Sequence record: NC_028927.1 | Direction: 5' to 3' (one strand) | Source: Escherichia phage slur02 | DNA length: 64,000 bases | In this document: piece by piece, positions 19,118-28,547 of the stretch | How positions within the stretch are numbered: position 1 is the first letter of the stretch | How the letters are laid out: every line of letters starts with the position of its first letter | The notes under the pieces: generated by a model | The model's input: the letters and a program-made list of their open reading frames with translations, nothing else | What the model was told of the DNA's origin: nothing | Databases searched by the model: none | Translations under genes and position numbers: made by a program

Positions 19118-19156
19118 CTTATACTATAACATTTTTACTTTAACTTGTAAACAACT
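19118..19156 (-). promoter_or_regulatory. early promoter upstream of srd-like gene
   Basis: GTTTAC, about 18 nt, TATAGT. Confidence 0.5.
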
Positions 19157-19208
19157 TTATGAAAAATGCTTTAAAACTTTCATGGTATAATGAATCTAAG
19201 TCCTTCCA

Positions 19209-23876: not shown

Positions 23877-23887
23877 AAGGAGGACAT

Positions 23888-24088
23888 ATGGTACAAAAAT
23901 TAATGGCACTTGTTGATGCCATAAAAGGTAATAAAAAACGTATAGCTTTTACTATTTCTGCTATGGTAGGAATTTTACTCTGGAACTTTATTTTATCACC
24001 TGTTGCAATTGCACATGGTATTAATATTCCAGTAGTTACTCTTGATACATTCGTAGATTTAGCATTTGCTTTAGTTGGGTTAATTTAA
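23888..24088 (+). CDS. candidate small hydrophobic protein (65 aa) on opposite strand
   Basis: Only plus-strand ORF lying in a minus-strand intergenic region; AAGGAGG 4 nt before ATG, though that sequence also overlaps the gene 56 middle promoter on the other strand. Confidence 0.25.
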   Translation: MVQKLMALVDAIKGNKKRIAFTISAMVGILLWNFILSPVAIAHGINIPVVTLDTFVDLAFALVGLI

Positions 24089-25113
24089 ATCTTAGCATAT
24101 TTAGATAGCCGCATTTTAGCCATCAACCCCTGGGCAATATTATTTTTCATATATTCCATAATTTGTTCAGGGGTTGCACCTTCCTTTCTAATCATATCAT
24201 TAACATCTTTTGATTTCCAGGGAGATTTATCCCAAAACATAACCCTTTCTCCTGCATCAACTAATTTAGTCATTCGCTTAATAGTGTCAGGATGACGAGG
24301 TTCATTATCTAAAACCCACACTCGTCTATCTTTAAATGGAACAACTTCTAGGTCTAATTGACCACCCGTAATAGCTATACCATTTTCAATAAAAAGTGAA
24401 TCTATAGGTCCTTCTAGAACATATACATCACCATCTTTAACTCGTTCGACTCCATAGATTTTTGTTGCTTCAGGATAAGCTTTGATAGTGATATATTTTT
24501 GGGGAGCATCTTTCTTTAATGCACGTCCTTGAAAAGACTCAGCTTTTCCATTAGCATTATAAATTGGAATAACAAGACGAGGCTCAGGTATTTCCTTTTT
24601 ATATGTTCCCGGTGCTATGCTATTAACTAATTTAGGCCATTCAGTTGTAAACCAAAGATATTTCCATTTATCCTTTGGAATACAACGAGCTTTTACATAT
24701 TTTATAATTGGATGGTCTTCCGCCAGTTTATCTAATCTAACACATGACGGAAGAGATTTAATTATTTTCTTCTCAGGTTGTTTAGGAAGTTCTTTAGGTT
24801 TTTCTACTGGACGACTTTTACCTTTTTCTTTTCTTATTTCAAAGATATACTCACGATATAAATCAGGTTCAAACTCCTTTAAATATATTCCGATTGGTGC
24901 ATGATAGTTACAGTTATAACAATGAATATTTCCTTCATTATTATCACCATAATACCATCCACGAGCTTTATTCTGGTCGGTTTTTGAATCTCCACAAACA
25001 GGACATCTAAACCGTAATTTAAAAGTTGAACTATTATTTACTTGTGTGAATTTAGGTAAATGAGCTAATGCACGGTATGCAAACTCATTATCAATCCAAG
25101 GTATTGATGACAT
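24085..25113 (-). CDS. 61: gp61 DNA primase
   Basis: 342 aa as in T4 gp61; N-terminal zinc ribbon CPVCGDSK...CYNC. Confidence 0.9.
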   Translation of the reverse strand: MSSIPWIDNEFAYRALAHLPKFTQVNNSSTFKLRFRCPVCGDSKTDQNKARGWYYGDNNEGNIHCYNCNYHAPIGIYLKEFEPDLYREYIFEIRKEKGKSRPVEKPKELPKQPEKKIIKSLPSCVRLDKLAEDHPIIKYVKARCIPKDKWKYLWFTTEWPKLVNSIAPGTYKKEIPEPRLVIPIYNANGKAESFQGRALKKDAPQKYITIKAYPEATKIYGVERVKDGDVYVLEGPIDSLFIENGIAITGGQLDLEVVPFKDRRVWVLDNEPRHPDTIKRMTKLVDAGERVMFWDKSPWKSKDVNDMIRKEGATPEQIMEYMKNNIAQGLMAKMRLSKYAKI

Positions 25114-25115
25114 TT

Positions 25116-25280
25116 TTACTCTTCTTTTTCTTTAGATTCCTCTTTTTTCTTTTTAGGAATCTGTTCAGGGCCTTTATTTACTACAGCGCCTGACGTTGTT
25201 CCAATAGAGATATTTTCAGGATTACCACCTGAATCTCCAGCGACCATATCTTCTTTAATAAATTCTTTATATGTTTTCAT
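25116..25280 (-). CDS. small protein (54 aa), 61.1 position
   Basis: Hand-translated MKTYKEFIKEDMVAGDSGG...; TAA-T-ATG coupling. Confidence 0.5.
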   Translation of the reverse strand: MKTYKEFIKEDMVAGDSGGNPENISIGTTSGAVVNKGPEQIPKKKKEESKEKEE

Positions 25281-25325
25281 ATTAACCTCTATTCATAAAA
25301 GCATTAAAAATTTGGTCATCAATAG
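25278..25325 (-). repeat. 48-bp direct repeat copy 1 (gene 3' end plus stop/start junction)
   Basis: Near-identical to 25636..25683 (1 mismatch). Confidence 0.8.
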
Positions 25326-25638
25326 ATGGAATAGCAACCTTTTCGGCATCATTTAGCAAATCATTAATTTCATCAGATAGCATAACACATGTGCCTTTAT
25401 TTCCTGTAATTGTTACTGCACAATTACGAACGTTTTCTTTATCAAATTTTAGGTTAATATTTTCGTAGTGAAAATCCTTTAATGCCGAATATATCTTTAA
25501 AATGAAATTGTCTTTTACTACAATAAACCCAACTTCACTATTAAAACGTGGTTCATGGAAACTGTAATAAACCTTTTCATCTATGAAATCGTATGAAATT
25601 TTTTCCATTTTTAAATATGAAAATTCAGAACTATACAT
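25282..25638 (-). CDS. hypothetical protein (118 aa)
   Basis: Track ORF; C-terminal 14 aa shared with 25640..26266. Confidence 0.5.
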   Translation of the reverse strand: MYSSEFSYLKMEKISYDFIDEKVYYSFHEPRFNSEVGFIVVKDNFILKIYSALKDFHYENINLKFDKENVRNCAVTITGNKGTCVMLSDEINDLLNDAEKVAIPSIDDQIFNAFMNRG

Positions 25639-25683
25639 ATTAATCTCTATTCATAAAAGCATTAAAAATTTGGTCATCAATAG
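25636..25683 (-). repeat. 48-bp direct repeat copy 2
   Basis: Near-identical to 25278..25325. Confidence 0.8.
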
Positions 25684-26266
25684 AAACATTTACTTTAGAC
25701 TGTTTTTCAGATGGCAATTCATATCCACATATTACAATTTTATGATCAATATCAAAATACACAGAAGCAATATGATTAATGATATTTTCAGTGAAGTCTA
25801 AATCGACATCAATATCTTTTTGACCAAATCCCAGAGGATAAATAATGCGAGTAATTCGATTATCTTTAACAAAGATTCCACCGACATACTCTGTACTGCG
25901 TTTAAAGTCTACACGCCGACGAAATGAAAAATATTCAGGCTCTTTATGAGCTCGGCTCATAGGACACAACGAATAACTAGAATAAGAGATGTCAAATCCT
26001 ACGCCTTCGATATGAGCCAAAGTGTCATGATTAAACCAATTATAATCGTACGCCAAATCCATTAGATTATAATATGTAAAAGGCACCGGATTAACATCAT
26101 TAGTCACAAGCATGTAATTAGCAACTGCTATAATTTCATTGTTTTTAACGAATACAAACCGTGATTGATGCGAATGACCTGGACCCGCGTTTTCACGATT
26201 AATGATATAACACTGGGCACCTTTATATTTGTATGTATCTTTGCACTTGTGCATTTGATAGAGCAT
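25640..26266 (-). CDS. hypothetical protein (208 aa)
   Basis: Track ORF; shares C-terminal SIDDQIFNAFMNR with neighbour. Confidence 0.5.
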   Translation of the reverse strand: MLYQMHKCKDTYKYKGAQCYIINRENAGPGHSHQSRFVFVKNNEIIAVANYMLVTNDVNPVPFTYYNLMDLAYDYNWFNHDTLAHIEGVGFDISYSSYSLCPMSRAHKEPEYFSFRRRVDFKRSTEYVGGIFVKDNRITRIIYPLGFGQKDIDVDLDFTENIINHIASVYFDIDHKIVICGYELPSEKQSKVNVSIDDQIFNAFMNRD

Positions 26267-26559
26267 TATTCACCTACCACTTCAGCGATGATATTTTTGT
26301 TATTAAAGTTTTTATCGCAATACAGAACATAATTATACTGCATTACACCACCAGACTTAAGTTGTTTTTGCACTTCAGCTTTCATTTCAGGGCGATCGCG
26401 CTCAACGATATTCATAATATCTGCTTCAATTTGAGTTTCAACTTCAGTCTGATCCGCAGTCATAGACCATTCGCACAAATCTTTATCATAACCTGCCATA
26501 GCAGGCTGAGCAGCACAAGAAGCTAAAGCAAAAATTGTGGCAAAGATAAATTTTTTCAT
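26266..26559 (-). CDS. sp: Spackle periplasmic protein
   Basis: 97 aa with signal peptide; position between 61 and 41. Confidence 0.75.
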   Translation of the reverse strand: MKKFIFATIFALASCAAQPAMAGYDKDLCEWSMTADQTEVETQIEADIMNIVERDRPEMKAEVQKQLKSGGVMQYNYVLYCDKNFNNKNIIAEVVGE

Positions 26560-26573
26560 GATAATCTCCTCAG

Positions 26574-26610
26574 TAATTTATGTTTATATAGTATCTCAAT
26601 TTCCAACAAA
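26574..26610 (-). promoter_or_regulatory. early promoter upstream of sp
   Basis: GTTTAC, 17 nt, TACTAT. Confidence 0.5.
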
Positions 26611-26619
26611 AGTAAACAG

Positions 26620-26877
26620 TTATTTTAAAACTTCTGCGTAATCACATGTTACAAACTGTTTCTCTAGCTTAACGATCTTACGAAAATACCTTTTACACTG
26701 ACGAATCTGTCGCTTCGTAGGACGTACAGCAAACTTAATAAATTCCACTCGACCAAATGGAGGACTTTCTTCTGCTGGAATATCTAACACCAATTCCCAC
26801 GTATCTGCAATAAGTGCTTTGAATTGCGTATTTTTCCTGACGTTATACGGAGTAGGTTTAAATAAAACAATATGCAT
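26620..26877 (-). CDS. hypothetical protein (85 aa)
   Basis: Track ORF trimmed to ATG coupled to dmd stop. Confidence 0.5.
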   Translation of the reverse strand: MHIVLFKPTPYNVRKNTQFKALIADTWELVLDIPAEESPPFGRVEFIKFAVRPTKRQIRQCKRYFRKIVKLEKQFVTCDYAEVLK

Positions 26878-26878
26878 A

Positions 26879-27061
26879 TTATCCTCGGCAATCCACTTCA
26901 CATACTTTCTTGTCATCAATGAAAGCTTTAACTAATGCTTTATTAACTTCAGCATACTGAGTAGTAACCCATTGAACGTCATCTTTCATCATTGTGGTTT
27001 CTTTAGTAAACATGCTTTCATTCTTAAACCACCCCATAAAAACTACCTTTACCAATTCCAT
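26879..27061 (-). CDS. dmd: Dmd, antitoxin against host RnlA/LsoA RNase toxins
   Basis: 60 aa MELVKVVFMGWFKNESMF...; immediately upstream of gene 41 as in T4. Confidence 0.8.
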   Translation of the reverse strand: MELVKVVFMGWFKNESMFTKETTMMKDDVQWVTTQYAEVNKALVKAFIDDKKVCEVDCRG

Positions 27062-27086
27062 AACAATCTCCTCATTTAACCAACAA

Positions 27087-27124
27087 GACTACTATACCAT
27101 AGTCTCGTCAGCTTGTAAACTAAA
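27087..27124 (-). promoter_or_regulatory. early promoter upstream of dmd
   Basis: GTTTAC, 17 nt, TATAGT; -10 within inverted repeat AGACTA...TAGTCT. Confidence 0.55.
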
Positions 27125-28547
27125 ATTTTAATTCATTCGCCAAAGCATCTAACTGAGCTCGAGTGGATTCATTTCTTTGATAGCGATTCTGCTCAGCCTG
27201 AATCTGTTGTGAACCTGCTACTTCACTCACTTCAGTTGGAGTAGAATCTTGTTCAATTTCTACCCATTTCTGATTTCCCTTTTGAACACCCATCAAAAAC
27301 TTATTCCACTTATTCTTATCGCCATATCGTGATTTGATTTGCTTAATGAGTTGTTGTTCAGCAGCTGCTAGCTCCTCAGTTTCAATGACCGCAAGCATAA
27401 AATCGGCTGTTGCTGGAAGACCAGCAGATTCTGCAATATCGCTCATGTTAACATCAGAAGAATCCCAAGCCTGTTTGCCGACCTGTGCTGCAGTCCAAAG
27501 AACAGTTTCGGTTTCAACAGCCAGAGCACGCAATTCCTCTGCAATAGCTTTAACAGTTGTGTAACTATTTTCTGAATAAACTCTAATGCGGCAAGATTTA
27601 CAAATACCTAGATAGTCGACAATAATGATTGTTGGAACAAAATTCTTTTTGAGCTTCAATTCATTCAAGAGAGACCTGAATGTATTAGCATCTGCTCCAC
27701 CAGTAGGATACTGTTTAACGATTAAACGACCAAGAGTAGATTTCTCACGCCATTTTTCCATTTTTCCTTTATACTCAGCGTAAGAAATATGCCCATCATC
27801 AATGTCATCAAGAGAAACATCAAGCATATTAGCATCAATACGTTTCGCACAGACTTCTTCAGCCATTTCCATGGAAATGTAAAGAACGTTATGACCAAGC
27901 TGCAAATAATCTGCTGCCAATGAACACAATCCTAATGACTTACCAACGTTAACGCCAGCCATTAAAACGTTCAGTGTTCCAGTCTCAGCTCCGCCTTTAG
28001 TAATTTTGTTTAGAATTCTGAGTTTAAATGGAACCTTACGAGCTTTATTCATATAAGATAGCCAACGCGCTTCATAGTCATCCATCCAATCATGACCAAC
28101 GTAGCTATCAAATGAAATTGATAATGCTTGGCGCATGATGTCAGGAATAGCACCAACATCCGGCATTTTCTTATTTCGTTTTTCCGGAGGAAGCTCAGCA
28201 TTAGTTTGAATTTCGATTATTTTAGACGTAGCATTAAACATCGCCCTTTGCTGAACATATTTTTCTGTTTCTTTTATTAACCAACTGTGGTCTTCCGGAG
28301 AATCAGCTAGTTTTGAAATAAGTGTTTTTACACCAGAATATTCTGTTTCAGTAAATGAACTATTTTCTAATGCAACATTTAACGCATTAATAGATGGAAC
28401 GCTATGATACTCATTAACATGAGATTTAATTAATTTGAATGTATTTTTAGCTGGACCACTTTCAAAATATTCTGAATCCATATATGGCCAAACTTTTGAA
28501 AAATAAGCTTGATCAAATATGAGATGAGAAAGAATAATTTCTACCAC
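27120..28547 (-). CDS. 41: gp41 replicative DNA helicase (DnaB-like)
   Basis: 475 aa; Walker A AGVNVGKS. Confidence 0.9.
   Translation of the reverse strand: MVEIILSHLIFDQAYFSKVWPYMDSEYFESGPAKNTFKLIKSHVNEYHSVPSINALNVALENSSFTETEYSGVKTLISKLADSPEDHSWLIKETEKYVQQRAMFNATSKIIEIQTNAELPPEKRNKKMPDVGAIPDIMRQALSISFDSYVGHDWMDDYEARWLSYMNKARKVPFKLRILNKITKGGAETGTLNVLMAGVNVGKSLGLCSLAADYLQLGHNVLYISMEMAEEVCAKRIDANMLDVSLDDIDDGHISYAEYKGKMEKWREKSTLGRLIVKQYPTGGADANTFRSLLNELKLKKNFVPTIIIVDYLGICKSCRIRVYSENSYTTVKAIAEELRALAVETETVLWTAAQVGKQAWDSSDVNMSDIAESAGLPATADFMLAVIETEELAAAEQQLIKQIKSRYGDKNKWNKFLMGVQKGNQKWVEIEQDSTPTEVSEVAGSQQIQAEQNRYQRNESTRAQLDALANELKF

Follow-up and report, generated by a model that had tools for sequence, protein, structure and literature searches.

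A 49-bp repeat closing the AdfA-family genes of a T4-like phage combines a conserved peptide, a middle promoter sequence and a translational junction, and probably serves cassette exchange

The window, by which we mean the whole 64,000-nucleotide stretch of DNA analyzed here (Escherichia phage slur02, NC_028927.1), is 100% identical in sequence to Escherichia phage slur04, a Tequatrovirus. The minus-strand gene order of the region under study is 41 (helicase), dmd, 61.4, sp, a 208-residue open reading frame (ORF), a 118-residue ORF (ORF118), 61.1 and 61 (primase); the flanking genes are 95–99% identical to those of T4 (Table 1). The 208-residue ORF matches the Pfam family PF23813 with 451.9 bits over model positions 1–210, a full-length match above the gathering score, and corresponds to adfA, gene 61.2 of T4. 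AdfA, or anti-DarT factor A, is reportedly the subject of work by LeRoux and colleagues from 2022. Because dmd and tifA (61.4), which are also anti-toxin genes (PMC9391042), lie next to adfA, the region is an anti-defense island. An HNH endonuclease gene is located between gene 41 and the dmd region in one contig from an uncultured T4-like phage (L025, 871–1491).

Table 1. Genes and sequence elements around the repeat, in window coordinates
Feature	Position	Strand	Description
sp (spackle)	26266..26559	-	conserved left flank of the variable cassette site
adfA (T4 gene 61.2), anti-DarT factor A	25640..26266	-	208 aa; PF23813, E=3e-136
Repeat copy B (internal)	25636..25684	-	final 14 codons of adfA (SIDDQIFNAFMNRD), TAA, ATG of ORF118
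MotA box, copy B	25655..25665	-	TAATGCTTTT
-10 TAATAT, copy B	25637..25642	-	
ORF118	25282..25638	-	118 aa; short paralog of the AdfA C-terminal half, as judged from profile matches; phrog_4122; Pfam AdfA 34.1 bits
Repeat copy A (P61-proximal)	25278..25326	-	final 14 codons of ORF118 (SIDDQIFNAFMNRG), TAA, ATG of 61.1
MotA box, copy A	25297..25307	-	TAATGCTTTT, within codons F-N-A-F
-10 TAATAT, copy A	25279..25284	-	12 bp past the MotA box; shares bases with the ORF118 stop codon and with the AT of the 61.1 ATG
Gene 61.1	25116..25280	-	54 aa; starts with the final ATG of copy A
Gene 61 (DNA primase)	24085..25113	-	namesake of promoter P61

The 3′ ends of adfA and ORF118 are occupied by the two copies of a 49-nt direct repeat, which are spaced 358 bp start to start and share 48 of their 49 bases. 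The sole mismatch, C at plus-strand position 25286 versus T at 25644, reads on the coding (minus) strand as GGT (Gly) in copy A and GAT (Asp) in copy B. A preliminary description of this DNA had reported a direct repeat with a single mismatch; we re-found it in the raw sequence, one base longer than claimed. When queried with up to three mismatches tolerated, the 40-nt core of the repeat is present at these two sites only in the 64-kb window, and it has no match in 100 dinucleotide-preserving shuffles of the window. On the minus strand, each copy comprises the final 14 codons of the upstream gene (SIDDQIFNAFMNR followed by G or D), the stop codon TAA, a single T and the ATG that starts the following gene. 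The codons and the stop codon make up 45 of the 49 nt, and the earlier proposal that a gene 3′ end was duplicated together with the coupled start of its neighbor holds for both copies. Copy A is the same as the tail copies in phages T4, T2, RB27 and REP2.

The last 13 nt of the repeat are a Shine-Dalgarno/stop/start junction, organized as GAGG, 5 nt and ATG with the stop codon lying in between; the coupling signal suggested in the preliminary description is thereby located. The single base change of copy B, which falls at −14 in the promoter numbering used below, weakens the Shine-Dalgarno sequence before ORF118 from GAGG to GAGA and replaces the terminal Gly of AdfA with Asp. The internal copies of the Gaprivervirus phages VR7 and RZ also end in Asp, like the window AdfA. 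A repeat at such a position could act as a structured RNA, that is, as a terminator, an attenuator or a hairpin controlling translation of the next gene, and a weak hairpin predicted in copy B (UCUAUU...AAUAGA) could mask part of the Shine-Dalgarno sequence. We regard this possibility as extremely improbable: i) the fold z-scores of the copies, −0.19 and −0.76, correspond to folding no better than that of shuffled sequences, ii) neither a terminator-like site in a scan of positions 24900–27200 nor an Rfam match at E ≤ 1 was found, and iii) the sites that vary across genera are codon third positions, not paired columns.

Overlapping the peptide and the junction is a promoter sequence. Transcription from the T4 middle promoter P61 starts at position 19122 (Marshall, Sharma and Hinton 1999, per Table 1 of PMC2988021). 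In the T4 genome (NC_000866), the 61.1 ATG is found at 19130–19128, and position 19122 is an A, 8 nt past the first base of this start codon. The −10 element of P61, TAATAT, spans −12 to −7 and lies over the 61.2 stop codon and the 61.1 ATG; progressing upstream, it is followed by a 12-bp spacer and the MotA box TAATGCTTTT, all within the 61.2 tail. The repeat corresponds to T4 P61 positions −54 to −6. Over these positions copy A is base-for-base the same as P61, with the same MotA box, the same 12-bp spacer, the same TAATAT and the same place at the boundary between a 61.2-type tail and the 61.1 start, while copy B differs at −14 only (G to A). Relative to T4, the window phage adds this second copy, with its one spacer change, 358 bp upstream and before ORF118. 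At the level of sequence, the window phage carries the P61 promoter twice. In both copies, the MotA box, centered near −30, agrees with the consensus (a/t)(a/t)(a/t)TGCTTtA (PMC2988021; wwwTGCTTtA) at 9 of 10 positions, the final base being T and not A, and TAATAT conforms to the sigma-70 −10 pattern TAnnnT placed 12 ± 1 bp after the MotA box.

The transcription start of copy A is predicted at 25272, the equivalent of T4 19122, and that of copy B would lie near 25630, inside ORF118. For either copy, and for copy B especially, we infer promoter activity from identity with the T4 sequence; copy B, too, would be an active middle promoter. Both copies in phage Lutter carry the label ‘promoter’, given independently by its depositors. 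As a Tequatrovirus so close to T4 in its flanks, the window phage is expected to encode MotA and AsiA. MotA-type motifs (box, 11–13 bp and TAnnnT) number nine in the window versus 1.2 ± 1.1 in shuffles, and eight of the nine are on the coding (minus, early/middle) strand. The seven matches outside the repeat, at 23877, 21262, 7926, 38417, 39046 and 43633 on the minus strand and at 19164 on the plus strand, are probably other middle promoters; the match at 23877 is just downstream of gene 61. A sigma-70 scan did not flag the repeat site, passing over it because the site has no −35 element.

The preliminary description took the two ORFs that share the repeat to be otherwise unrelated. This is not so: with the tails removed, the bodies align with 34% identity over 62 aa (BLASTP E = 0.002). 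ORF118, which has a PHROG of its own, scores 34.1 bits against PF23813 (cut-off 27) over model positions 113–211 only and is not a full-length AdfA. It aligns to AdfA residues about 105–208, and a profile of short-form bodies matches the AdfA body with E = 4e-8. By these comparisons ORF118 is a distant C-terminal-domain paralog of AdfA. It is without the N-terminal half, for which BLASTP detected no similarity to ORF118 (E = 0.15); by this value BLASTP gave no support to the idea that AdfA contains an additional ORF118-like domain in its N-terminal half, and the profile gave only faint support. The RB69 AdfA(R164H) variant binds the DarT1 toxin, T4 AdfA binds more weakly, and His at residue 164 enables DarT1 binding (Johannesman et al. 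2025, PMC11825919). The window AdfA possesses His (ENIINHIAS) at the position aligned to residue 164 of RB69 AdfA, and ORF118 possesses Cys73 where AdfA has His164.

An AlphaFold model of ORF118, computed from a 10-sequence alignment, placed body residues 8–101 at pLDDT above 90 and the tail, following a disordered linker, as a separate helix of residues 106–115 at pLDDT 55–60. A single-sequence AlphaFold model of AdfA was unusable (pLDDT 38). No PDB entry matched the ORF118 fold by Foldseek (best E = 0.24) or the AdfA sequence by sequence search, and a structure search of BFVD returned family members only. Among sequences, a word-indexed protein search recovered close relatives of ORF118 only, and an exhaustive profile search recovered a tiny family with five real representatives. 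Weak matches to the short-form profile (E about 1e-5 to 7e-4) were also seen for three long, highly repetitive proteins of 459–1921 aa (P0009, P0011 and P0012), each with 6–8 matched stretches and P0012 being a near-perfect tandem repeat; these matches look spurious.

The alignment of ORF118 to the C-terminal half of AdfA and its position directly downstream of adfA are what would be expected if ORF118 were a recent partial tandem duplication of the adfA 3′ half, with the repeat as the remnant of that event. We judge a recent duplication very unlikely, since synonymous sites in the bodies are saturated at an amino acid identity of only 34%, T2-type phages have ORF118 without adfA, and relatives at 46% identity are present in Gaprivervirus. 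Body divergence together with this wide distribution argues that the ORF118 lineage is old, with an ancient duplication as its possible origin. For the 122/145-aa type of Dhakavirus and Gaprivervirus, body homology was not demonstrable by sequence and the fold match was weak. One published study describes T2 as being without an adfA homolog; T2 carries ORF118 at the site of adfA. The short AdfA paralog appears to be previously undescribed.

The C-terminal peptide is the constant element of the family. The sequence DDQIFNAFM is invariant in 11 family sequences, down to 30% identity, and is preceded by a linker of variable length. About 10 synonymous positions of the tail vary, with the peptide kept, across Tequatrovirus, Mosigvirus, Dhakavirus, Gaprivervirus and two unclassified metagenomic T4-like phages, and in one locus (L028) the −10 element is gone with the peptide retained. 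Since the peptide is kept while synonymous positions vary, the peptide itself is under selection, and the conserved C-terminal peptide envisaged earlier is confirmed. The core of the MotA box also varies in other genera, from GCT to GCA or GCC; the promoter role therefore cannot mainly explain the conservation of the tail, and it may be confined to Tequatrovirus and some relatives. The tail helix would be a partner-binding or oligomerization element.

In the phage collection, the tail is present in 708 records at 905 places; the ORF118 body is found in 293 records (T2 included), the adfA body in 356 and both in about 155. A pattern scan of IMG/VR returned only 8 loci. Four arrangements were observed between sp and 61.1: adfA and ORF118 (slur04, RB27 and Lutter), adfA only (T4), ORF118 only (T2 and JK23), and neither (RB3). 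Together, the ORF118 body and one repeat copy make up a unit of 358 bp, which some phages have and others lack. T4 is slur04 minus exactly 358 bp, and RB3 is T2 minus exactly 358 bp, the unit there being bounded solely by the 14-nt linker TAGAGG(T/C)TA(G/A)TATG. The copies are spaced by 358 bp in 8 of 8 tandem phages, and the arrangement does not track flank similarity.

Within Tequatrovirus, the proximal copy hardly varies (≥99% identity in 387 records), and the internal copy occurs as three haplotypes that differ from the proximal copy at 1–3 positions and leave the MotA box untouched. In phages 132 and sutha, which have adfA only, the single tail matches internal haplotype b in its 5′ markers (GAC GAT) and the proximal copy in its 3′ markers (AGA GGT). 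This chimeric tail places the exchange point between repeat positions 12 and 38. It could be an ancestral adfA allele and not a deletion product; the joint is inside the repeat either way. Gaprivervirus carries another tandem pair, the 145-aa type followed by the 119-aa type, with tails that differ at 3–7 nt; the two copies of VR7 differ at 7 of 49 nt. That cassette content may vary among related phages, raised as a check in the preliminary description, was borne out by four presence/absence combinations, exact 358-bp indels and chimeric tails in two phages. That description had offered a recombination footprint that shuffles cassettes and a conserved peptide tag with a coupling signal as alternatives; each is right in part, and both the AdfA paralogy and the overlap with P61 had been missed.

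The synonymous sites bear on why the two tails are so alike. At residues shared by ORF118 and AdfA, the same codon is used at 12 of 12 positions in the tail and at 11 of 25 in the body (Fisher p = 7e-4); same-codon use between genera is about 0.5 in core genes. The tail of the Dhakavirus phage C6 is identical to that of slur04 at 47 of 49 positions, and in genes 61, sp and 41 none of the 1887 49-nt windows compared between the two phages exceeds 40/49. Because the synonymous sites of the tail are identical and those of the body are not, selection on the peptide alone is insufficient to account for the DNA identity. Constraint from the promoter is limited to the MotA box and the −10 element; 5′ of the box, synonymous sites do vary, both in other genera and in haplotype b of the internal copy.

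Purifying selection on the peptide, the promoter and the ribosome-binding site, acting without recombination, might nonetheless keep the copies identical. The invariance of the peptide across the family, the nucleotide-level constraint added by promoter and Shine-Dalgarno sequence, and the near-invariance of the proximal copy in the 387 Tequatrovirus records would all fit such a regime. However, at least seven synonymous sites 5′ of the MotA box could differ freely, yet all are identical in slur04, and neither the exact 358-bp indels nor the chimeric tails can arise without exchange inside the repeat, which renders selection alone unlikely. The identity of the slur04 tails would rather reflect shared descent through homologous exchange, not independent conservation. 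Continuing gene conversion between copies left no sign in the internal and proximal tails that were compared.

Exchange at the repeat could also be the work of a site-specific mobile element, with the repeat as its target or footprint, as in cassette transfer driven by a homing endonuclease. T-even genomes hold many homing endonucleases, and the HNH gene of L025 is near one related locus. We find this hardly credible for the present site: the slot contains no endonuclease, integrase or transposase gene, within or beside it, in slur04, T4, T2 or RB3, both cassettes encode AdfA-family proteins, and homologous recombination accounts for every junction.

Two known systems invite comparison with the repeat and the homologous exchange proposed here. 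The first are the PeSL/PmSL regulatory cassettes of T4-like phages (Arbiol et al. 2010, PMC2839356; Comeau et al. 2014, PMC4122927). Like these, the motif recurs, bears a promoter and finishes with the Shine-Dalgarno sequence and start codon of the next gene, in this case a middle-type promoter followed by GAGG(T)TAATATG, and it resides in a hyperplastic region where it marks insertions, deletions and replacements between close relatives. PmSLs likewise use a TGCTT Mot box plus −10 (PMC2839356, PMC4122927). PeSLs, however, are intergenic, contain a stem-loop terminator and exist in many dispersed copies, whereas the window element is located in coding sequence, doubles as a peptide, is without a significant stem-loop and is found at AdfA-family gene ends only. 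Of the PeSL/PmSL hallmarks, then, the promoter with Shine-Dalgarno sequence and the flanking indels are present, and the stem-loop and the intergenic location are absent. The repeat works like a PeSL/PmSL without being one, and is best described as a coding-embedded, middle-promoter variant of the idea. The second system is the T4 dmd–tifA locus, at which microhomologies of 6–10 bp brought about amplification and deletion during laboratory evolution (Srikant et al. 2022, PMC9391042). The neighborhood is the same, an anti-toxin island between genes 41 and 61, and short direct repeats alter gene content in both cases. In contrast to the chance 6–10 bp microhomologies of that experiment, the repeat described here is a 49-bp functional sequence whose recombination products are fixed in natural phages.

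Taken together, a model for this locus emerges that we consider likely: a variable slot between sp and 61.1/61 holds AdfA-family cassettes, and a three-function tail module, duplicated in the window phage, serves their exchange. The slot, bounded by conserved sp and 61.1/61, holds AdfA-family anti-defense cassettes, each family member ending in one and the same C-terminal peptide. In T-even phages, the DNA of this peptide doubles as the MotA-dependent middle promoter P61 and as the Shine-Dalgarno/stop/start junction. The window phage has adfA and then ORF118 in tandem, so that the three-function module occurs twice, 358 bp apart. The repeat would furnish the substrate at which T4-type recombination inserts or deletes the ORF118 cassette, and such insertion or deletion would leave expression of the downstream genes intact. 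While P61, AdfA and the plasticity of the region are already known, the combination of peptide, promoter and junction in one repeat that also acts as an exchange site appears to be undescribed.

If this model is correct, the locus offers a concrete case of anti-defense gene swapping in T-even phages, in which one 49-bp sequence supplies a peptide, a promoter, a junction and the homology for exchange; as all of these roles are carried by that one sequence, gene content may change with expression of the primase gene preserved. A short AdfA paralog is moreover seen to be widespread, and phages deemed to be without adfA, such as T2, have it at the same site. For studies of DarT neutralization, the family-invariant C-terminal helix suggests itself as a region to mutate. 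As a tentative extension, which we hold to be possible though doubtful, the invariant tail may be the docking helix of the AdfA family, joined by the variable linker to divergent bodies that recognize different toxins or defenses. Because the tail DNA is also the middle promoter and the ribosome-binding site of the next gene, each cassette would then be self-contained and could recombine, alone or in tandem, without disturbing primase expression. Should the docking-helix reading be true, ORF118, present in about 290 sequenced phages, would be an uncharacterized counter-defense factor.

Several further observations were made at related loci. The adfA alleles are mosaics of T4-like and RB69-like segments: that of RB27 (L005, 2041–2673) has a Mosigvirus/RB69-like N-terminus and a T4-like C-terminal part, that of REP2 (L007, 1683–2318) has an RB69-like body and becomes T4-like from about 20 codons before the stop codon, and that of Lutter (L018, 355–987) is also among the mosaic alleles. 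The 12-nt spacer between sp and the next gene, TTAGAGG(T/C)TA(G/A)T (T2, L002, 2040–2051; RB3, L003, 1683–1694), resembles the last 12 nt of the tail before the ATG, and the internal copy of Shfl2 has the T2-type GGTTAGTATG, a hint that unequal exchange of a T4-type tail with a T2-type linker gave rise to the tandem form. A simple microhomology deletion in the tandem form does not yield the T2-type sp/ORF118 junction, missing it by 4 nt. In RB3 (L003, 2046–2300), sp and 61.4 are separated by an additional gene whose annotation reads goF mRNA metabolism modulator, further plasticity of this anti-defense island. In phage C6 (L004, 2309–2505), the tail is followed by an annotation gap in which a 73-aa ORF (MFVLTQFSKAVYSY...) begins at the coupled ATG; this ORF resembles 61.4/tifA, and the records of VR7 and AnYang name the same gene 61.4 and ‘nucleotidyltransferase’, respectively.
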